A stretch of 32,000 nucleotides of DNA from Candidatus Nanosynbacter sp. BB002 (lineage in GTDB: Bacteria > Patescibacteriota > Saccharimonadia > Saccharimonadales > Saccharimonadaceae), in assembly GCF_037013405.1 (NCBI RefSeq), contig NZ_CP146064.1, forward strand, positions 300,001 to 332,000, read 5' to 3'. The notes beneath the pieces were generated by a model. It was not told the DNA's origin and did no database searches. It saw only the letters and a list, made by a program, of their open reading frames with translations. Below, in pieces: positions 4,557-29,373 of the stretch. Positions within the stretch are counted from its first letter, which is position 1. Each line of letters begins with the position of its first letter. Made by a program: the position numbers and the translations under genes.

Positions 4557-4976
4557 TTATTTTCTATGCTGTTTAGCTTGCTGGCAATTCTTACAAATCC
4601 CTTCCAGCTCAAAGTGGTGCTTGACAACGGTAAATTGGTGTTTGCGGCTGAGATAGCCAACAAGCTGTTCCAATTCTGGCGTCTGGATGGGTTCAGCGTT
4701 TTGGCAACGGATGCAATAGAGATGGTGATGATGCGGAATGAACGGCTCAGCGAGTTCGTAGTAGTTTTTCCAGCCAATGGCAACGGCACTAACGATGTGC
4801 AGTTGATCAAAGGTAACAAGTGTGCGGTAGACGCTGGCTCGGTCAACGTTTTTGCACTTCTTTGCAATATCACTAATGGTTAGTGGAACAGCTGACTGCT
4901 GTAATACCTCAAATACTTGCTGGCGCGGTTTAGTCAGACGCAAGTTGTGCTGTTTGAGCAATTCGTCTATCGTCAT
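4557..4976 (-). CDS. Fur-family metalloregulator, probably a zinc uptake regulator (Zur)
   Basis: 139 aa with an N-terminal winged-helix region (LRLTKPRQQVFEVL), then HHHHLYCIRC ... CKNC, a His cluster plus two CxxC pairs typical of Fur/Zur. It is divergent from a nicotianamine-synthase/COG0523 operon. TGaTATAAT (4986-4994) lies 9 nt from the ATG. Confidence 0.85.
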   Translation of the reverse strand: MTIDELLKQHNLRLTKPRQQVFEVLQQSAVPLTISDIAKKCKNVDRASVYRTLVTFDQLHIVSAVAIGWKNYYELAEPFIPHHHHLYCIRCQNAEPIQTPELEQLVGYLSRKHQFTVVKHHFELEGICKNCQQAKQHRK

Positions 4977-4982
4977 ATTGTT

Positions 4983-5018
4983 GCAATTATATCACTTATT
5001 GCGACAAATTTGCAATAA
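4983..5018. promoter_or_regulatory. Candidate Fur/Zur operator overlapping both divergent -10 boxes
   Basis: Three half-sites GCAAT (4983-4987), ATTGC (4998-5002) and GCAAT (5012-5016) form two inverted repeats, including TTATTGC-N9-GCAATAA (4996-5018). The outer sites overlap the fur-side -10 (4986-4991) and the plus-strand TGcAATAAT (5011-5019). Confidence 0.35.
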
Positions 5019-5046
5019 TTTGGAGGGTTTGGCATTATGAAAAGCT

Positions 5047-5814
5047 ATGGATATGGCAATTAAAACAGTGATGAATTTGCACGATTTTGTACCATCACCA
5101 GACGTCAATGCGGCTTTTTCTAGCTTGGTGGCGTCGGTTGTGCAGGCGACAGCGTTACCGACCTGGTGCAATGATGAAGTGTGCCGCGAGGTGCAACGCC
5201 GTTGTTCCCTATCAGAATCAGAGATGGAAATGTATTGGTCGCGGCGAATTACCGGCTCAGCTCGTCCGCAGCAGGAGCTGGAAACGTTTTGGTATATTGA
5301 CAATTATCGCGAGTTGGTGCGACGTGAGATTGGCCTAATGGGTGGCTCGGGTTTGATGTTGAGTAATAGTAGTCGCGTGGCGATGATCGGCAGCGGTCCC
5401 CTGCCTTTGACCGCTTGGTGTCTGTGGCATCAGACAGGCGCGGCGGTTGATTTGGTGGATGTGGCGCCGGTTGCTTTGACGCAGTCGCGCGAGCTGGCAC
5501 GGGCGATTGCTTGGCCAGTTGGCGAGTGTTTGTTGGCGGACGGAGCGGCGGTAGCTTTGCCGGATAGTGCTTACGACGTGATGTATGTGGCTGGACTGGC
5601 GGGCGATTCGGTTGAAGCCAAGCAGCAAATTATTGATAATATTTTGCCAGCGCTTCGGCCTGGCGGGCGGATCATTGTGCGCGGCGCCCATGGCGCGAAA
5701 ACGTTGTTATACCCAGCGTTTGACCCGAATAGTTTGCGGCGCGTACAGCTGCTGGTCGAGTATAACCCTGACGACGATATCATTAACTCAGTATATGTGT
5801 ACAAGAAAGGCTAA
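5047..5814 (+). CDS. Nicotianamine synthase family protein (CntL/NAS-like)
   Basis: Matches NAS-family blocks as I recall them: FWYIDNYRELVRRE, VAMIGSGPLPLTAW, YDVMYVAGLAG, LRPGGRIIVRGAHGAKTLLYPAFDP and INSVYVYKK. Confidence 0.85.
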   Translation: MDMAIKTVMNLHDFVPSPDVNAAFSSLVASVVQATALPTWCNDEVCREVQRRCSLSESEMEMYWSRRITGSARPQQELETFWYIDNYRELVRREIGLMGGSGLMLSNSSRVAMIGSGPLPLTAWCLWHQTGAAVDLVDVAPVALTQSRELARAIAWPVGECLLADGAAVALPDSAYDVMYVAGLAGDSVEAKQQIIDNILPALRPGGRIIVRGAHGAKTLLYPAFDPNSLRRVQLLVEYNPDDDIINSVYVYKKG

Positions 5815-5816
5815 TT

Positions 5817-6716
5817 ATGAACGATACAATTGCATTATATCTGGTGAACGGCGCGCTGGGTGCTGGCAAAACGACGCTGGTTGATTTTTTAGTGCAACAG
5901 CCTGAGTTTGCTGGCGCGCGAGTGGTTGAAAATGAGTTTGCGTCGGAAAGTATTGACAGTTGCACATTAGCACAGCGCGTTGATGAGCTGGCGACAATTG
6001 CTGGCGAGTGCATCTGCTGCAGTAGCGGCGAAGAGCTGATTGATATTTTGCACAATTTTGCAATAAGCGGAAAAGCACCGGTTATCATTGAGTCAACTGG
6101 CGTCGCTAACACTCTGCGGGTGGTCGAGAAATTGCTGGCTGGTGATATCTTTGAGCAGTATGATTTGAAACAGTCGTTGTATGTTGTGGATGGAGCTGAA
6201 GCTAGAGCTGATGGTTTGGCGGAGGCGTTGCTGGCGGAAGCTCAGGCAGCGGATACGGTACTAATCAGTAAGCTGGATTTGCTGGCTGAAAATGACCGTC
6301 AGCAGCTCATTGAGACACTGTCGCAACAAGGGCTGACTAATGTTATGAGGATGGATCACGGCAAATTTGATCTGGTCCAGCTTGGTGACAAGTCGCAGAT
6401 TTTGGATTATTTACTACTGCACGAGCCTGCGGAAAACGCGGCTGAGAATGCTTTAAATTATAGCGTGGTTGATGTGGCTGAGTTGGCTATTAGCGCTGAG
6501 AAGATTGAGAATATCTGGGCTAGTTTGCGAGATAAATATGCTTTGCGGCGCATGAAAGGCGCGGTTGCTGATGGTGACGAGATATTTCACATCGAAGCAA
6601 CGCCGCAGCAAGTACTGGTTACGCGCGGTGCCACTGGCGAGTCATTAAAATTAGTTATCATTGGCGAGCGGGCGCGTGAGATTACTCGCGCAGTAATTAT
6701 GAAGGAGTTGGGATGA
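5817..6716 (+). CDS. COG0523/CobW-family G3E GTPase (zinc metallochaperone-like), copy 1
   Basis: P-loop GALGAGKTT, metal-binding CxCC (GECICCSS), ESTG switch, SKLD base-specificity motif and a CobW_C-like C-terminal domain. It starts 2 nt after the NAS-like stop codon. Confidence 0.85.
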   Translation: MNDTIALYLVNGALGAGKTTLVDFLVQQPEFAGARVVENEFASESIDSCTLAQRVDELATIAGECICCSSGEELIDILHNFAISGKAPVIIESTGVANTLRVVEKLLAGDIFEQYDLKQSLYVVDGAEARADGLAEALLAEAQAADTVLISKLDLLAENDRQQLIETLSQQGLTNVMRMDHGKFDLVQLGDKSQILDYLLLHEPAENAAENALNYSVVDVAELAISAEKIENIWASLRDKYALRRMKGAVADGDEIFHIEATPQQVLVTRGATGESLKLVIIGERAREITRAVIMKELG

Positions 6717-7258
6717 TGGAAGGTACGAATAATGCGAGAGCGGCGGTTGATAGACTACTTGATATGTATGATGAGTATAAGACTTTGACAGTAAAGATTA
6801 CTGCTGCGGAGCGCCGTTTGGCGTTGGCGAAATTGAAGAATAGCGACGTCGAACAGATACGAATAGAGTTGGACGATCTGCGACATGAGCAGCAGCAACT
6901 GTCTGATGACATGACGTTTGATACGCCACTAGTTTGGGTGATGTACAAGTTTGAGGCCTACCAGGACGAGGCGCAGCCGATTCGAACCATGCACGATTTT
7001 CGCTTACACTGCTCGAAGCCCGGCTATATTTGCACCAAGCGCTTCACATTTTTAAATGCACACTTGTGCAATAATGGGCAATGTCTCCTGACGGACGACG
7101 AACGATACCCCGACAAAATGCTACTTAGTGAGATTTTTCCGCTCCTTGGTGAAATTGAACGAGATGAAGTTTTCGTATCCATTTGGCGTGCGCATGAGTA
7201 CTACCAGGAGGATGGAATTGTCAAAAAATGGCAGGACTATGTGGGCTGTGCGGCATAA
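6713..7258 (+). CDS. Hypothetical protein with a predicted coiled-coil N-terminus and a Cys/His-containing C-terminal half
   Basis: 181-aa ORF whose ATG overlaps the COG0523 stop (ATGA). It contains HCSKPGYIC ... HLCNNGQC. I recognise no family. Confidence 0.6.
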   Translation: MMEGTNNARAAVDRLLDMYDEYKTLTVKITAAERRLALAKLKNSDVEQIRIELDDLRHEQQQLSDDMTFDTPLVWVMYKFEAYQDEAQPIRTMHDFRLHCSKPGYICTKRFTFLNAHLCNNGQCLLTDDERYPDKMLLSEIFPLLGEIERDEVFVSIWRAHEYYQEDGIVKKWQDYVGCAA

Positions 7259-7317
7259 CTTATAACCTGCCAACTAAGTACAGATGATTCTATGTAGATA
7301 TGCTATACTAAAGCAAT

Positions 7318-8391
7318 ATGAAACATCTCTGGCGTTCACATCATCCATTTCGAATTTTTTGGTTTTCAACACTGTTGACGCTGATTTTGGGCAGCTTGAC
7401 GTTCATACACTTGGGTCTTGGTGGCCTCTGGCTATTTGCTATTTTGGTGGTGTTGGAAGTGACGTTTAGCTTTGACAACGCGGTGATTAACAGCAAAGTA
7501 TTGGCTGGTATGAGCTCGACGTGGCAAAAAGTATTTTTGACGGTTGGGATTTTTGTGGCGGTGTTTGTAGTGCGGTTTATTTTGCCAATTTTCATCGTTA
7601 TGGTGGCGAGTGGTCATGGTTTTACTGAGGTGGTCGACCTGGCTATTAATAAGCCGACTGAGTATGGTCACATCTTGCACGAGGCGTCACCAATGATTGA
7701 CGCGTTTGGTGGTGCGTTCTTGATCATGATCGGCCTGAGCTATTTCATCGATTATAACAAGCGTATCCACTGGGTCAGTCATGTTGAGCCGTGGCTGGCC
7801 AAGGCTGGGCGATTTGAAAACTTCAAAGTTTGTTTGATGTTGGCGGTGGCGACTATTTTGTATTTCACGGTGGAGCCAGCACATCAGTCGCTGATTTTGA
7901 TCTCATCTATCCTGGGGATTATGCTGCACATCGGGCTGGAATTGTTTGGATCCTTTTTCCACGAGGAAGATGCTCAATCTATCAAAATCAAGACTGGCTG
8001 GGCGGCATTTGCAAGTTTGTTGTACCTTGAAGTGTTGGACGCTAGCTTTAGTTTTGACGGTGTCATCGGTGCGTTTGCTATCACCAGTAGTGTCCTGTTG
8101 ATTGTGGCTGGGCTGGCGGCTGGCGCTGTTTGGGTACGGTCGCTGACAGTGTATCTGTTGCGCACGGGCGTACTCAGTAAATATAAGTATTTGGAAAATG
8201 GTGCACACTGGGCGATTACGGCGCTTGGTATGATGATGATTGCGAAGCTGTTTCATCTGGAGTTACCAGAATGGGCGACAGGCGGCCTGGGGTTGTTGTT
8301 TGTGAGCTTGGCGGTCGGCAGTAGTGTTTTGGAGGCACGATCTATCAGGCTGCGAGAAGCAGCAGCAAAAATCAAACGCCGAAAACGATAA
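7318..8391 (+). CDS. TerC/DUF475-family integral membrane protein
   Basis: Polytopic 357-aa ORF with a duplicated signature: LEVTFSFDNAVINS in the first half and LEVLDASFSFDGVIGA in the second. TGcTATACT (7301-7309) lies 8 nt upstream of the ATG. Confidence 0.75.
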   Translation: MKHLWRSHHPFRIFWFSTLLTLILGSLTFIHLGLGGLWLFAILVVLEVTFSFDNAVINSKVLAGMSSTWQKVFLTVGIFVAVFVVRFILPIFIVMVASGHGFTEVVDLAINKPTEYGHILHEASPMIDAFGGAFLIMIGLSYFIDYNKRIHWVSHVEPWLAKAGRFENFKVCLMLAVATILYFTVEPAHQSLILISSILGIMLHIGLELFGSFFHEEDAQSIKIKTGWAAFASLLYLEVLDASFSFDGVIGAFAITSSVLLIVAGLAAGAVWVRSLTVYLLRTGVLSKYKYLENGAHWAITALGMMMIAKLFHLELPEWATGGLGLLFVSLAVGSSVLEARSIRLREAAAKIKRRKR

Positions 8392-8396
8392 GCGTT

Positions 8397-8413
8397 TTGC
8401 AACGTTGTTGCAA
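8397..8413. terminator. Short hairpin in the 22-nt gap between convergent genes
   Basis: ttgcaac-gtt-gttgcaa, a 7-bp perfect stem with a 3-nt loop. It is AT-rich and weak. Confidence 0.3.
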
Positions 8414-8974
8414 TTAGAGTCTGACGCTTAGAGGCTCAATGCTACCATCAAGAAATGCGCTAACTAGCTTGATTGACTCAGGGATCGTCCAATCGCGGAG
8501 AATTGTTCGTTCGTCGGCGTTGAATTTACTGAGGACAAAGTCGACATCACCGATTTGCCGGCGTAGCAAGTTGTCGGTGCCGATGCGGATGTGCCAAAAC
8601 TCACTGCCAACGTGTCGATGCAGTGATTTCAAACCGTTATTGCCAGCACTTTCGCCCCCCTTGCGGACGCGAATTTTACCAAAGTCAAGCGCTGTATCGT
8701 CGTGAATAATCAGTAAATCATCAAGCGTCAGCTTATAAAAATCCATGAGCGCTCGCGCTGCGATGCCAACTTCGTTGTAGTATGTTGTCGGTTTGACGAG
8801 TAGAATCTTCTCTCCAGATATGTTCAATTCGGTAATATCAGCCGAGAATTTTGGCTTATTGCTAAATTGTGCACTTTGCTCCGCCGCTAACTGGTCGACC
8901 ACCAAAAAGCCAGCGTTATGCCGCGTGTACGTGTATTTGTCGCCAGGATTACCGAGGGCTAGAATGACTTTCAT
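8414..8974 (-). CDS. pth: Peptidyl-tRNA hydrolase
   Basis: MKVILALGNPGDKYTYTRHNAGFLVVD and the overall 186-aa length are classic Pth. TGaTATACT (8981-8989) lies 6 nt upstream of the ATG. Confidence 0.95.
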   Translation of the reverse strand: MKVILALGNPGDKYTYTRHNAGFLVVDQLAAEQSAQFSNKPKFSADITELNISGEKILLVKPTTYYNEVGIAARALMDFYKLTLDDLLIIHDDTALDFGKIRVRKGGESAGNNGLKSLHRHVGSEFWHIRIGTDNLLRRQIGDVDFVLSKFNADERTILRDWTIPESIKLVSAFLDGSIEPLSVRL

Positions 8975-9018
8975 GTCTTCAGTATATCACCTCGGACGTG
9001 ATGGCGTATAATAGCTAT

Positions 9019-9990
9019 ATGGCAAAGCGCGATGATGATTTGGAATTTAGTATCAATGCAGCGTTTGATGAGACGCGGACGATTGTTGATAAAGTACCGC
9101 TGTATCTGGTGAATGGCTCGCTGGGCGTTGGTAAGACGAGCGTGCTGGAATTCTTATTGCAACAACGTGACTTTACGGGCGCGCGAGTGATTGAAAATGA
9201 ATATGCCAACGAAAATGTCGATGGCTACCGGTTGGAGGGCTTGGCAGACATGGTGACGACCTTGGCTGGCGACTGTGTTTGCTGTGGCTCGGAGGATGCA
9301 CTGACCAAGATGCTGATGGATTTTAGTTGCTATTCCCCTGCACCAGTGTTCATCGAGGCGACGGGCGTGGCACGGACGATGAATTTGGTGGAGCGATTGA
9401 TCAGCGCTAAGATGTTTGCTAAGTACGAGCTGATGCAGAGTTTTTACGTGATCGATGCGCATGAGATTTTACGCGGTGTCGAGCCGGCGCATGAAATTGA
9501 GCTACAAGCGGCAGATGTGATTTTGGTGACCAAGGAAGATCTATTGAAGGATAATGAACGAGCTGAATACGAGGCCAAGCGCCGCGCCCTGCCCTATGCC
9601 AAGGTGCTGAGCGCCCCACACGGCCAGTTTGACCTCAGTAAAATCACCACGCCGTCGGGGCTGCTGGCATTTTTCGACCAGTATGATGGCGAGCTCGCGG
9701 TGCCGGACAATCCAACCTATAGCGTGGTTGATTTATCGGCCGTCACTGTCAGTGAAGCGGTGTTTGAAAAGCTGTGGCCAGAGCTGTTTGCGGCATATGG
9801 TCTCAGGCGGCTGAAAGGTTGTTTTATAAACGACCGTGGTGAGAGGCGGCACATTGAGGCGACGCAGTATCAAATTGAGATTCGTCATGCACGCTCAGAT
9901 GAGGCAGTAAAAATTGTGCTGATCGGTGAGCGAGCAGATGAAATTACACGCGATATTTTGCAAGCGCACATTCTCATGTATGGTGGATGA
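9019..9990 (+). CDS. COG0523/CobW-family G3E GTPase, copy 2 (paralog of 5817-6716)
   Basis: GSLGVGKTS P-loop, GDCVCCGS CxCC, EATG, TKED and a CobW_C-like end. A 23-nt stretch (9178-9200) differs at one base from 5913-5935. The start is set at ATG 9019 because TATAAT (9007-9012) lies 6 nt upstream; the longest ORF starts at 8998. Confidence 0.8.
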   Translation: MAKRDDDLEFSINAAFDETRTIVDKVPLYLVNGSLGVGKTSVLEFLLQQRDFTGARVIENEYANENVDGYRLEGLADMVTTLAGDCVCCGSEDALTKMLMDFSCYSPAPVFIEATGVARTMNLVERLISAKMFAKYELMQSFYVIDAHEILRGVEPAHEIELQAADVILVTKEDLLKDNERAEYEAKRRALPYAKVLSAPHGQFDLSKITTPSGLLAFFDQYDGELAVPDNPTYSVVDLSAVTVSEAVFEKLWPELFAAYGLRRLKGCFINDRGERRHIEATQYQIEIRHARSDEAVKIVLIGERADEITRDILQAHILMYGG

Positions 9991-10644
9991 TTAGCTTTTT
10001 CCTGCGGTGTCTGGGCTATCGACAGTGATGGTTTGGTATGATTTACCTTTTTTTGTTTTATCTATCTCAGCAGGCTTCACAGTAAGAGTAAAACCTTCCT
10101 GTAGTTCGGAAAATGGTCCAAGTAATCCGTAGGCTGCAACCTCTCCAACTGCTCGCATGAAGTTCTCGGCAGCTTGTTCTCGTTCAGCTAGTTCTGCTGG
10201 ACTTTCACCTGCTACTCCTGGTATCTCAACACCAGTAATAACTTCACTAAAGTTGGGGTACTCGGCGTCACCTGGCTCTGCTGTCACAGACATGCTTGCA
10301 CTTGTGCAACCAGTAGCTTTGGGCATGTCAAAGATGGATGATTTTTTACCAGCACGGTCAAGTAGTGGTTGGTGGTTACCAGTGTCTCCAGCAATGAGAG
10401 TAACTCCTACTATAGTCTCCTCACTCGTTGTGTTTTCGTCATATTGCGGTAGTACTTGGATATCATCGACTGAGCCGATACGCATGGAATATTCGTCTGC
10501 CTTTTTGCTAAAAAAAGATTTAACGGTGACCTCAAAGATAGTATGCTTAGGGTCTATGGTATCAATAGGTGGCGTTTGATCGGGGCGTACAATGGTATGA
10601 GAGGTTGCCTGTTCAGAGTGTGTAGAGTTTGTCAAGTTTTCCAT
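9991..10644 (-). CDS. Hypothetical acidic protein with no recognisable domain or signal peptide
   Basis: ORF with TGgTATAAT (10654-10662) 9 nt upstream of ATG 10644 (MENLTNSTH...). The longer ORF to 10710 would start upstream of its own -10 box. G+C is lower than in the neighbours. Confidence 0.55.
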   Translation of the reverse strand: MENLTNSTHSEQATSHTIVRPDQTPPIDTIDPKHTIFEVTVKSFFSKKADEYSMRIGSVDDIQVLPQYDENTTSEETIVGVTLIAGDTGNHQPLLDRAGKKSSIFDMPKATGCTSASMSVTAEPGDAEYPNFSEVITGVEIPGVAGESPAELAEREQAAENFMRAVGEVAAYGLLGPFSELQEGFTLTVKPAEIDKTKKGKSYQTITVDSPDTAGKS

Positions 10645-10747
10645 ATATGTTGTATTATACCACAACAGCTCATATTTGTAAATAGTGTATTGATCATGAA
10701 AATAGCCCACCCAAAGAGGCTTAAGCCGAGGTGTGAATTATCAAAGG

Positions 10748-16620: not shown

Positions 16621-16695
16621 GGCCTCATCGTCTAGCGGTTAGGACACCGGGTTCTCATCCCGGCAACCGGGGTTCGATTCCCCGTGAGGTCACCA
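16621..16695 (+). tRNA. tRNA-Glu (anticodon CUC), CCA encoded
   Basis: Hand-folded cloverleaf: acceptor ggcctca/tgaggtc, D stem gtct/ggac, anticodon stem ccggg/cccgg with loop ttCTCat, T stem cgggg/ccccg with loop ttcgatt, discriminator A, then CCA. Confidence 0.9.
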
Positions 16696-27447: not shown

Positions 27448-27963
27448 TTACAGTGCTGCTTCAACAGCTGCCCACGTAGCGTCAGGATTGTCCTCTGGCA
27501 CAATGATGGTGACTTGGTCTCCAATGTTGATGCGGAAGAACGTGACGCTGGCGAGTAAAATGCGATACTCGCGGCCGTTAGCCTCGACGTAGTAGACGCC
27601 GTCGTGTTGCACCAGTGTACCGATGACTTGCTTGCGCGCCACTGGGCCGATTTGCTTGTAGATGAAGCTGCCGTCATCAGCAATGGTTAATTTCAAAATA
27701 TCGCCTTCAACAAGCTTTGATTTTGAAGCGTAGTTGGCTGGGATTGGGTAGTTCTTGCCGTCTGGGCCGAGCATGGTCTGACCGTCAAACACACCTTCGA
27801 CAACCTTGCCGGTTACGTCTTCGGTGGAAGTTTTTGGCGTGACAACTTGACCGTCATCACCGATGATACTGATCAATAGCTCTTTTGCTGCTGCCAAATT
27901 GGTTTCTGCCTCTTGTATCAATGAGCGAAGCCGCTTTACTTGTTTTTCTGGTAATTCAGACAT
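27448..27963 (-). CDS. Hypothetical protein (N-terminal helix plus two beta-rich segments)
   Basis: ORF with the ATG at 27963 (MSELPEKQVKRL...). The TTG at 28038 is the longest alternative. A TTGACC-N17-TATATA promoter-like element lies upstream. No recognised domain. Confidence 0.55.
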   Translation of the reverse strand: MSELPEKQVKRLRSLIQEAETNLAAAKELLISIIGDDGQVVTPKTSTEDVTGKVVEGVFDGQTMLGPDGKNYPIPANYASKSKLVEGDILKLTIADDGSFIYKQIGPVARKQVIGTLVQHDGVYYVEANGREYRILLASVTFFRINIGDQVTIIVPEDNPDATWAAVEAAL

Positions 27964-28120
27964 AGTGATTCTCGCATTTCCCTGTCTATTTTTGATAGTT
28001 CTCGTTCTATATATAGCATAGGAAAAAGGTTCGGTCAAGGCTTACATAAGCAAGTTATTTCAGATTTCCACAGCATTTTAAGGGGTACTTGCAAAACTGT
28101 TGCAAATTTTACCCTTGCAA

Positions 28121-29131: not shown

Positions 29132-29373
29132 AAAAATCCTTTCTTTGATTGAGTTAATTTCATTCTTTTCGCCAATTTGTTAACGTGCGGTAATGGAGAA
29201 TCAAAAAGACGTCTTTGATTCTCGCACTACCAAAGACGTCAAATAAAACTGTTCGTTTCATCCCTCGGCGGCATGTTTACATCTGTTTGTTATGCAGATC
29301 GCCGCTGTCTTTGGTAATGTTCCTTACCATTGTAGCAGAAATGACAACGAAATGCAACAGGTATATTATATCA
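29132..29373 (-). promoter_or_regulatory. rplJ promoter (TGaTATAAT at 29365-29373) plus a ~225-nt structured leader (L10-leader candidate)
   Basis: A long untranslated leader contains a near-perfect hairpin at 29196-29223, a second copy of caaagacgtc at 29231-29240 and a hairpin ggtaa-ggaaca-ttacc. The position matches the known L10(L12)4 autoregulatory leader. Confidence 0.5.

Follow-up and report, generated by a model that had tools for sequence, protein, structure and literature searches.

In a 32-kb window (the whole stretch of DNA analysed) from Candidatus Nanosynbacter sp. BB002, an oral Saccharibacterium (TM7), positions 4557-7258 were read as a metal-starvation module of the candidate phyla radiation (CPR), in which a nicotianamine synthase (NAS)-type enzyme would make a chelator, and not as an opine operon of the cnt type. 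We put the probability of this reading, which rests on sequence comparison, at roughly 0.55. The module comprises a Fur-family regulator gene and, divergent from it, an operon for a NAS-family enzyme, a COG0523 GTPase and a 181-aa helical-domain protein. An open reading frame (ORF) check and Pfam and NCBIfam scans recovered the genes described in the initial annotation of this DNA, at the same coordinates and with the same domains. The elements of the module are as follows.

4557-4976, minus strand: Fur-family metalloregulator, 139 aa (Pfam FUR, E 8e-19)
4986-5015, minus strand: fur promoter (consensus scan and sequence)
4996-5018, no strand: operator, 23-bp palindrome TTATTGCGACAAATTTGCAATAA, with a 6-5-6 core at 4999-5015
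5010-5038, plus strand: putative operon promoter (sequence inspection)
5047-5814, plus strand: NAS-family enzyme, 255 aa (Pfam NAS PF03059, E 1e-41)
5817-6716, plus strand: COG0523/G3E GTPase, 299 aa (cobW PF02492, E 7e-25)
6713-7258, plus strand: helical-domain protein, 181 aa, without Pfam entry (domain fusions, AF2 model)

The window NAS was 100% identical to 'nicotianamine synthase family protein [Candidatus Nanosynbacter sp. BB002]', and the same protein occurred on many near-identical contigs from oral metagenomes, one of them 1.1 Mb long. A scan of species-representative genomes gave 80 NAS loci, mostly one genome per species, all labelled as Saccharibacteria or relatives except L082 ('uncultured bacterium') and L079 (a Micrococcales contig). 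The window proteins were mapped onto 86 Saccharibacteria loci, 77 of which were informative for gene-order counts; exact-match operator counts were taken over 88 loci.

The 5047-5814 product matched PF03059 with 143.6 bits (cutoff 27.1) over residues 6-254 of 255, in agreement with the family assigned to it initially. The activity class of this family is transfer of aminobutyrate (3-amino-3-carboxypropyl) from S-adenosylmethionine (SAM). MtNAS (3FPE) was matched with E 4.5e-11 by the single sequence and with E 3e-23 by a profile of 17 homologues (positions 58-252). The profile matched S. aureus CntL in the PDB with E 8e-6, in the SAM-binding core only, and the NCBIfam CntL equivalog NF033601 scored 17.1 bits against a cutoff of 350. 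By these comparisons the window enzyme appears to be of the archaeal/eukaryotic NAS type, far closer to MtNAS than to CntL. Its E61 and Y87 aligned with E81 and Y107 of MtNAS, and its GSGPLP and D138 with the GGGPLP and VNVVEI stretch of that enzyme. The equivalents of this Glu and Tyr in AtNAS1, E77 and Y106, are essential by mutagenesis (PMC10248798). Because E61, Y87, the SAM motif G115-S-G-P-L-P and D138 did not vary among 17 sequences with identities as low as 43%, the catalytic Glu/Tyr and the SAM motif are intact, and the loss of SAM- or aminobutyrate-binding residues that had been named as a sign against the NAS assignment was not seen.

As first reported for this locus, Pfam scans of the locus and the other ORFs found no CntM, CntK, ABC importer or MFS/EamA exporter in the window. 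No opine dehydrogenase (CntM) domain was present in the window ORFs scanned, nor in any related locus inspected, and CntM homologues have been reported in four phyla only, none of them CPR (PMC7438024); it is therefore plausible that the product is formed without an opine dehydrogenase. A literature search returned no paper linking nicotianamine synthase to Saccharibacteria or CPR, or to a COG0523 cassette.

The order NAS, COG0523 and 181-aa gene was kept in 63 of the 77 informative loci and reached down to 45% NAS identity; the first COG0523 gene directly followed NAS in 63/77, and the regulator stood beside NAS in 72/77. The cassette was also found in nine contexts outside Nanosynbacter, where a metal regulator lay beside it (FUR in eight and NikR in one); L087 is too short to judge. 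The gene orders in the others were as follows, where 'domain' means the helical domain.

L089 and L090: FUR, divergent from cobW and a NAS fused to the domain
L091: cobW fused to the domain, NAS, ArsP_1, DUF1980 and two unknowns, all on one strand
L092: FUR, divergent from a NAS fused to GNAT, cobW, and the domain fused to a methyltransferase
P0248 locus: FUR, divergent from NAS, cobW and the domain
L093: ZIP, then FUR, divergent from NAS and the domain
L094: FUR, divergent from a MerC-like gene, NAS, cobW and the domain
L088 (5960-9755): NikR, divergent from a 514-aa cobW and an aminotransferase fused to the domain; no NAS nearby

The L088 regulator carried a NikR_C domain (E 1.3e-8). Judged by these sequences, the cassette would recur as a metal-regulated unit in uncultured bacteria, most of them CPR. 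Enzymes of the tailoring type are fused to its parts, as expected of a small-molecule pathway. The L088 aminotransferase may recall, by analogy, plant nicotianamine aminotransferase. A YibE/F-like membrane protein (PF07907) flanked the cassette in L089 (3512-4705) and in the P0248 locus, two unrelated contigs, and is another candidate transport partner.

Of all parts of the locus, the 181-aa protein is the most novel. It had no Pfam, NCBIfam or PDB sequence match, whether searched as a single sequence or with 78 family members one by one. An exhaustive HMMER search gave 156 cluster representatives as relatives among 1.84 billion (clusters at 50% identity). Of these, 39 had at least 230 residues, and about thirty were fusions: about 22 with a cobW GTPase in front, five with NAS in front (P0287, P0303, P0315, P0357 and P0363), two with a PrmA/MTS-type methyltransferase behind, and one with a class I/II aminotransferase in front. 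Because most of the NAS fusions contained the C-terminal bundle only, that bundle is the core domain. In P0299, P0309, P0293 and P0284, Trp stood at conserved Gly positions, for example in the Walker A stretch 'TWPLGSGKT'. This pattern indicates that these relatives probably come from Gracilibacteria/Absconditabacteria with genetic code 25 (UGA=Gly) and were translated with the wrong code; the cassette would therefore span several CPR lineages.

An AlphaFold2 (AF2) model from a 78-sequence alignment was all-helical, with a predicted local distance difference test score (pLDDT) of 96.1 and a predicted template-modelling score (pTM) of 0.89; the AF2 run from the single sequence gave a pLDDT of 48 for the C-terminal domain and was not usable. 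In the model a long antiparallel helical hairpin (2-66) leads into a bundle of five helices (72-162), with a short hairpin after it. Against the PDB, Foldseek returned nothing below E 0.5, only coiled-coil noise. W75, K79, H99, R110, W158 and E162 were invariant, and Y78, A82, Y83, I106, C107, K172 and W173 were at least 90% conserved. The i, i+3/4 spacing of these residues would bring them together on a single face in each of four helices of the model. We infer that they form a single pocket, which would resemble a ligand-binding or active site rather than a Cys/His metal ribbon. The label 'Cys/His protein' given to this product by the initial annotation was dropped: of its Cys and His residues, conservation extended to H99 (invariant) and C107 (at least 90%) only.

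The basic and aromatic character of the conserved domain residues, which are not typical metal ligands, also fits another function of the cassette. The enzyme might transfer its aminocarboxypropyl group to a protein, an RNA or another molecule, with the helical domain, resembling the SerRS arm, as specificity factor and the fused methyltransferase, GNAT and aminotransferase modifying the same target. The hairpin resembles the SerRS arm, one family member matched Seryl_tRNA_N (E 7e-5), and weak Foldseek matches were to SerRS; moreover, the fused PrmA/MTS-type methyltransferases usually act on proteins or rRNA. However, a metal regulator was present in every context examined, most contexts had COG0523 and metal-type transporters (ZIP, MerC-like, ArsP_1 with CEC and DUF1980 with CC), and the enzyme kept the NAS-specific Glu and Tyr and scored 144 bits on the NAS model. 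We consider this function very unlikely, and chelator synthesis is kept as the preferred reading.

The GTPase next to the helical-domain gene had the Walker A motif GAGKT and the motif CICC; the second COG0523 GTPase of the window (8998-9990) had GVGKT and CVCC, and the two paralogues shared 41% identity. The ATGA overlap at 6713-6716 between the first COG0523 gene and the 181-aa gene was found as described, and by sequence the two genes are predicted to be translationally coupled. The 22/23-nt identity of 9178-9200 and 5913-5935 was likewise confirmed; it is due to a conserved GARV(I/V)ENE stretch common to both paralogues. Neither paralogue had a Pfam match to CobW_C (PF07683), and their C-terminal 130 residues were conserved between them; the precomputed annotation of the L092 relative had a faint CobW_C match. 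All NCBIfam equivalog scores were far under cutoff (ZigA, 45 against 600; PRK11537, 75 against 361), and both GTPases are COG0523 members of no named subfamily. Several fused COG0523 relatives had long His-rich linkers, which are typical metal-binding stretches.

The Fur-family gene is divergent from the operon, as noted originally, and a conserved operator is common to both. The operator core at 4999-5015 is TTGCGA-CAAAT-TTGCAA, a 6-5-6 inverted repeat, and a further half-site TTGCAAT lies at 4981-4987. The GCAAT/ATTGC/GCAAT repeats already recognised in this region are real and far above chance, as 80 of the 88 loci carried the palindrome 4996-5018 without a change and at the corresponding position; in the window it had one occurrence at 0 mismatches. 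The operator was kept where NAS identity was only 45-51%, while the flanking DNA had diverged. Within the 70-bp divergent region the footprint TTGCAAnTATAnnAnnTTATTGCrACAAAnTTGCAATAA was kept from 100% to 45% NAS identity, and the DNA just downstream of it varied freely among the loci. A TGCAA-N5-TTGCA core was also present in the intergenic DNA between regulator and cassette of L089 (twice), L090 and L092, and twice just upstream of the L091 cassette.

The type of this operator was that of Nur. The Nur box of S. coelicolor is tTGCaa-N5-ttGCAA, and in Fur, Zur and PerR boxes the arms are separated by one base only (PMC2691836). The window core fitted the Nur consensus at 11/12 positions, and the TTGCAA-CAAAT-TTGCAA of many relatives at 12/12; an n-1-n Zur box was not found at the conserved operator, whose arms are 6 bp and whose spacing is 5 bp. 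The 6-5-6 pattern gave five window sites at no more than one mismatch, compared with 0.64 expected, and 0/100 shuffles reached five. Three window sites were perfect, all intergenic (4999-5015, 8397-8413 and 28089-28105). At the last of these, 28089-28120 reads TTGCAA-N9-TTGCAA-N5-TTGCAA on the minus strand, just past the rplL terminator hairpin and upstream of the ORF 27448-28038 (minus strand, no Pfam match). After that ORF come a Cys-rich DUF2797 gene and a GDSL lipase. The site at 28089-28120 may be a further candidate target of the same regulator.

The operator repeats had been placed over both -10 boxes; instead, they overlap the shared -35 (TTGCAA, 5010-5015) and flank the fur -10 (4986-4991). 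The fur promoter has its -35 TTGCAA at 5015-5010, an 18-nt spacer and an extended -10 TG..TATAAT at 4991-4986. It scored 10/12 consensus matches plus the upstream TG in the scan, its -10 was conserved in relatives as TATAAT, TATACT or TACAAT, and the fur ATG follows 9 nt after the -10. The putative operon promoter shares the -35 TTGCAA (5010-5015) inside the operator and has a 17-nt spacer and a -10 CATTAT (5033-5038), with the NAS ATG 8 nt downstream; it fell under the threshold of the consensus scan. The CAT(T/A/G)(A/C)T hexamer 8 nt before the ATG was conserved in L068, L070-L078 and L084. Because both ATGs lie 8-9 nt after a -10, the fur and operon transcripts are probably leaderless.

Whether GGAGGG (5023-5028) and the ATG at 5037 could be the true ribosome-binding and start site, or begin a leader peptide, was considered, and the idea was rejected: the frame (MKSYGYGN*) is not that of NAS, the stretch was variable in relatives, and the -10-like hexamer before the annotated ATG was conserved. 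Both elements would lie in the promoter spacer and the -10. A -10-like hexamer 8-9 nt before the ATG, with no Shine-Dalgarno sequence between them, was seen at fur (4977-4991), NAS (5033-5049), DUF475 (7301-7320) and the ArsP_1 gene of relatives (L083:11962-12007), which suggests that leaderless transcripts may be widespread in this organism.

One NAS gene stood apart from the others. L079:7946-8789 (PDSI01000084.1, 'Micrococcales bacterium', dolphin oral metagenome) is a lone NAS of the Saccharibacteria type, 47% identical to that of the window. Its flanks have 66-72% GC, with rsgA-, aroA- and PFOR-like ORFs (read from translations), and the NAS gene itself about 60-64% GC. A perfect 13-1-13 palindrome, CCTTATTGCGACT-C-AGTCGCAATAAGG, precedes it, and the arms of this palindrome are those of the Saccharibacteria operator. 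There was no fur, COG0523 or helical-domain gene near it. To judge from the sequence, this looks like a transfer of NAS and box between an epibiont and a host-type actinobacterium.

The HHHH, CIRC and CKNC motifs noted earlier are visible in the translation of the regulator, and the C87/C90 and C127/C130 CxxC pairs of the structural Cys4 site were invariant in the regulator alignment. The closest solved structures were C. jejuni and H. pylori Fur, with Zur, Nur and PerR lower; the regulator profile gave E 5e-29 for CjFur, 9e-28 for MtZur and 4e-13 for EcZur. No NCBIfam model passed its cutoff (Zur, 25.5 bits against 167; Fur, 65; PerR, 56), and Fur, Zur, PerR and Nur matched the regulator at similar levels. 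The Zur-like label given in the initial annotation was therefore not retained, since the regulator fits Fur as well, the operator is of the 6-5-6 Nur type and a distant cassette uses NikR. Nur has a nickel-specific site of His70, His72 and His126 (PMC2691836). The S1-S2 region of the window regulator (LHIVSAVAIGWKNYYEL), where Nur has His70/His72, contained no HxH pair, a comparison made at the level of the region.

These features of operator and regulator bear on the metal. In a nickel or cobalt system, a Nur-like regulator would control a nickelophore or cobaltophore pathway, and the G3E GTPase and the helical domain would traffic Ni/Co. The 6-5-6 operator type has been described, among the characterised Fur-family proteins, for Nur (PMC2691836). 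A distant cassette (L088) is paired with NikR, and the Micrococcales NAS (L079) keeps a perfect box of the Nur type without a neighbouring fur. The organism in which Nur was characterised, Streptomyces, is an actinobacterium. Nicotianamine and staphylopine are strong ligands of Ni and Co, cobalt/nickel transport was the first function described for the cnt system, and HypB, UreG and CobW traffic Ni or Co. However, the regulator has no HxH pair before HHHH and scores higher against Fur/Zur structures than against Nur, CxCC COG0523 proteins are mostly zinc-linked, a ZIP flanks the L093 cassette, and the window contained no nickel enzyme. To our knowledge, no nickel enzyme is known in Nanosynbacter. 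This account is possible, although we hold it for improbable on balance. For the preferred chelator module the metal is most likely zinc, to which the two COG0523 paralogues and the ZIP in L093 point, and nickel or cobalt is a serious alternative.

The initial annotation had also stated that a transporter is missing. This held for the lineage of the window and failed for its relatives, as at least 47 of the 86 loci carried an ArsP_1 permease (PF03773, CEC motif) and a DUF1980 protein (CC motif). As a convergent pair, they lay between the operon and the gene that comes after it. The 32-kb window, where the gap between operon and DUF475 is 59 bp only, contained no trace of either, and no ArsP_1 or DUF1980 homologue could be traced to BB002 or to the 1.1-Mb contig among the 40 members read per cluster (clusters of up to 1,707). 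Because the distant lineages L068, L070-L078 and L084 have the pair, its absence from the window locus is most simply a loss. A literature search on ArsP_1/DUF1980 (YcgQ/YcgR, SMU_746c/747c) and metals gave nothing useful. In L083 (11780-11794) and about 20 other loci, the 6-5-6 box TGCAA-CAATG-TTGCA lay inside the ArsP_1 coding sequence, centred on the Met59 ATG, which some gene callers take as the ArsP_1 start (290-aa compared with 349-aa products); this may be a regulated internal start or a coding coincidence.

With no exporter or importer in the operon or the 32-kb window, and two COG0523 paralogues present, the product might never leave the cell. It would then buffer or shuttle cytosolic metal, zinc in this case, and the GTPase and the domain would redistribute it. 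This is the stripped-down reading of the initial annotation, and it would concern the window lineage. MtNAS is likewise not tied to dedicated transporters. Against such a purely intracellular zinc economy stand the ArsP_1/DUF1980 pair in at least 47 related loci and its presence within the NAS operon of L091, because of which membrane transport appears to be part of the ancestral system. We regard a purely intracellular role as unlikely, and prefer the metal-starvation module.

Downstream of the module, the following elements occupy the window up to position 9990.

7318-8391, plus strand: DUF475/TerC-family membrane protein (DUF475 E 5.5e-87, TerC E 6.5e-17)
8397-8413, no strand: second perfect 6-5-6 box, TTGCAA-CGTTG-TTGCAA (window pattern scan)
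8414-8974, minus strand: pth, a housekeeping gene
8998-9990, plus strand: second COG0523 GTPase, CVCC (cobW, E 5e-24)

The whole of 4557-9990 had been presented as one locus, in which the TerC-like protein might move the product. DUF475 and the second COG0523 gene are adjacent in many Nanosynbacter genomes, the second perfect box comes right after DUF475, and TerC-family proteins of B. subtilis handle Mn. However, the promoter regions of both genes are free of the box: there was no operator in the 59-bp gap upstream of DUF475, and none in the intergenic sequence that the second COG0523 gene shares with the divergent pth. Each gene appears to have a promoter of its own, which for DUF475, as proposed before, includes a visible extended -10 (TGCTATACT, 7301-7309), and pth stands between the two genes. 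Their conservation is also unlike that of the operon, both being far better conserved than NAS (about 75-87% against about 50% identity). In lineages with NAS about 50% identical, DUF475 was 85-87% and the second COG0523 66-87% identical; DUF475 was absent from the locus in L068, L080-L082 and L084, and both genes also adjoined NAS loci that have neither the first COG0523 nor the 181-aa gene, so that they occur with and without the operon genes. Neither gene was found beside the cassette in the nine contexts outside Nanosynbacter. The two genes are thus not kept as operon partners, and a single system extending to 9990 appears quite unlikely. By its conservation the second COG0523 would be a 'core' paralogue of Saccharibacteria, and the module is best taken to end at 7258.

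The convergent 3' ends of DUF475 and pth lie 22 nt apart, a gap that the box at 8397-8413 fills. At the homologous place, 15 related loci had a palindrome with a 12-bp stem, GCTTATTGCGAC-ATT-GTTGCAATAAGC, followed by a T-run (for example L083:13165-13205 and L071:11834-11875). A view of this site as a 'decayed' operator copy was discarded: it has three mismatches (20/23) to the over-long 23-bp pattern and is nevertheless a perfect 6-5-6 box. The site could be an operator, a terminator hairpin or both. A riboswitch before the TerC-family gene was also looked for; no yybP-ykoY element was found, and the Rfam matches in the window were a tRNA and an L10 leader only. The L10 leader (RF00557, 50 bits) is at 29194-29332, upstream of rplJ-rplL, and the sole tRNA, tRNA-Glu(CTC), at 16621-16695. 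Adjoining the second COG0523 gene, the ORF 9991-10710 (minus strand, 239 aa) had no Pfam or NCBIfam match. Among strains with neighbouring genes at 95-100% identity, its product was only 82-84% identical, and near-identical contigs differed in its called length (216-238 aa); it appears to be fast-evolving. The remaining Pfam-scanned ORFs of the window were housekeeping genes or had no obvious metal link.

Several observations weigh against the chelator module. In 12 TM7x-like species the locus contains NAS and the operator, and both the first COG0523 gene and the gene for the 181-aa protein are missing from it; in L093 the domain accompanies NAS with COG0523 absent, and in L088 it accompanies COG0523 with NAS absent. 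The three components can thus occur apart, and the helical domain is therefore a partner and not an obligatory NAS subunit. With a single conserved His and a single conserved Cys, the 181-aa protein shows no evident metal site of the classical kind. The permease pair of the relatives had no box in its promoter region, with only one box about 175 nt inside the coding sequence, which gives no sign of a co-regulation of permease and operon in Saccharibacteria. Finally, several SAM would be spent per chelator molecule, a questionable cost for a reduced, host-dependent epibiont.

If the reading holds, the module would work as follows. The Fur-family repressor would bind TTGCGA-N5-TTGCAA and cover the -35 common to the two back-to-back promoters. 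With the sensed metal plentiful, it would silence its own gene and the three-gene operon; with the metal scarce, the operon would be expressed. The NAS-type enzyme would then use SAM to form an aminobutyrate-containing, nicotianamine-like chelator, with no opine dehydrogenase involved. The COG0523 GTPase and the 181-aa protein would act as a pair with the NAS enzyme or its product. As a best guess, the helical domain would bind the chelator or the chelator-metal complex in its Trp/Tyr/Lys/Arg/His/Glu pocket, and would pass metal to, or take metal from, the CxCC site of the GTPase for client proteins. In most related species, the ArsP_1 and DUF1980 pair would be the likely membrane step.

A bolder version may be stated tentatively, at somewhat less than even odds. 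The helical domain would be the missing partner of CPR NAS and, together with COG0523, would carry out GTP-driven loading or unloading of metal on the chelator, or free the synthase of a tightly bound product. The system would be a third type of nicotianamine system, next to the NAS of plants and archaea and the CntLM of bacteria, in which a Fur-family repressor independently adopted Nur-type recognition; it would serve ultrasmall epibionts for zinc or nickel acquisition in competition with their bacterial and human hosts.

Metal acquisition by Saccharibacteria and other ultrasmall epibionts is an unsolved problem, and the locus offers a compact candidate of three genes, a regulator and a 17-bp box. 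The TM7x transcriptome paper annotated no obvious iron transporter. In the Saccharibacteria and CPR literature found by our search nicotianamine was not mentioned, and full-text checks, including the TM7x transcriptome paper, found neither zinc nor CobW. The helical family, with about 156 clusters, is tied by repeated fusion to nicotianamine synthases and COG0523 metallochaperones. As little is known about the clients of COG0523 proteins or about how they work, a fused partner is a rare handle on the action of such a GTPase. If the reading is true, NAS-type chemistry independent of CntM extends into bacteria of the human mouth, with a bearing on nutritional immunity and on the exchange between epibiont and host. 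For DNA recognition by the Fur family, too, a box of the Nur type beyond Actinobacteria would be a novelty.

Compared with known systems, the window enzyme shares with MtNAS of Methanothermobacter (PDB 3FPE/3O31) and the plant and fungal core-NAS the family PF03059, the class-I SAM fold and the catalytic Glu/Tyr; like these it is core-NAS-sized, has no C-terminal extension and has no opine dehydrogenase partner. Unlike MtNAS, it is encoded in an operon with COG0523 and the helical domain under a Fur-family operator, and the single-sequence match between the two is weak (E 4.5e-11). The Cnt systems (staphylopine, pseudopaline, yersinopine and bacillopaline, with CntK/L/M and an exporter and importer under Zur) likewise have a NAS-fold enzyme in a metal-regulated operon. 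Their regulons often include COG0523, and the expected role in both is metal scavenging in a host-associated niche. In contrast, the window enzyme is no CntL, the window has no CntM, CntK, ABC importer or MFS/EamA exporter, and the box is 6-5-6.

The Zur-regulated COG0523 proteins ZigA, ZagA/YciC, YeiR, YjiA and Zng1 show Walker A and CxCC motifs, a link to the Fur family and His-rich relatives, as seen here. Unlike in the ZigA/ZagA group, the partner of the window GTPase is the helical domain, often fused to it, and not HutH, FolE or MetAP. With the S. coelicolor Nur regulon the match is in operator architecture and sequence, and in both the site overlaps the repressed promoter. However, the target in the window is the NAS cassette and not the nik transporters and sodF, the organisms belong to the CPR, and the regulator shows no HxH pair and resembles Nur no more closely than it does Fur/Zur. 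The window system would be a form of metal homeostasis based on nicotianamine, in which both the partners and the control element are new.

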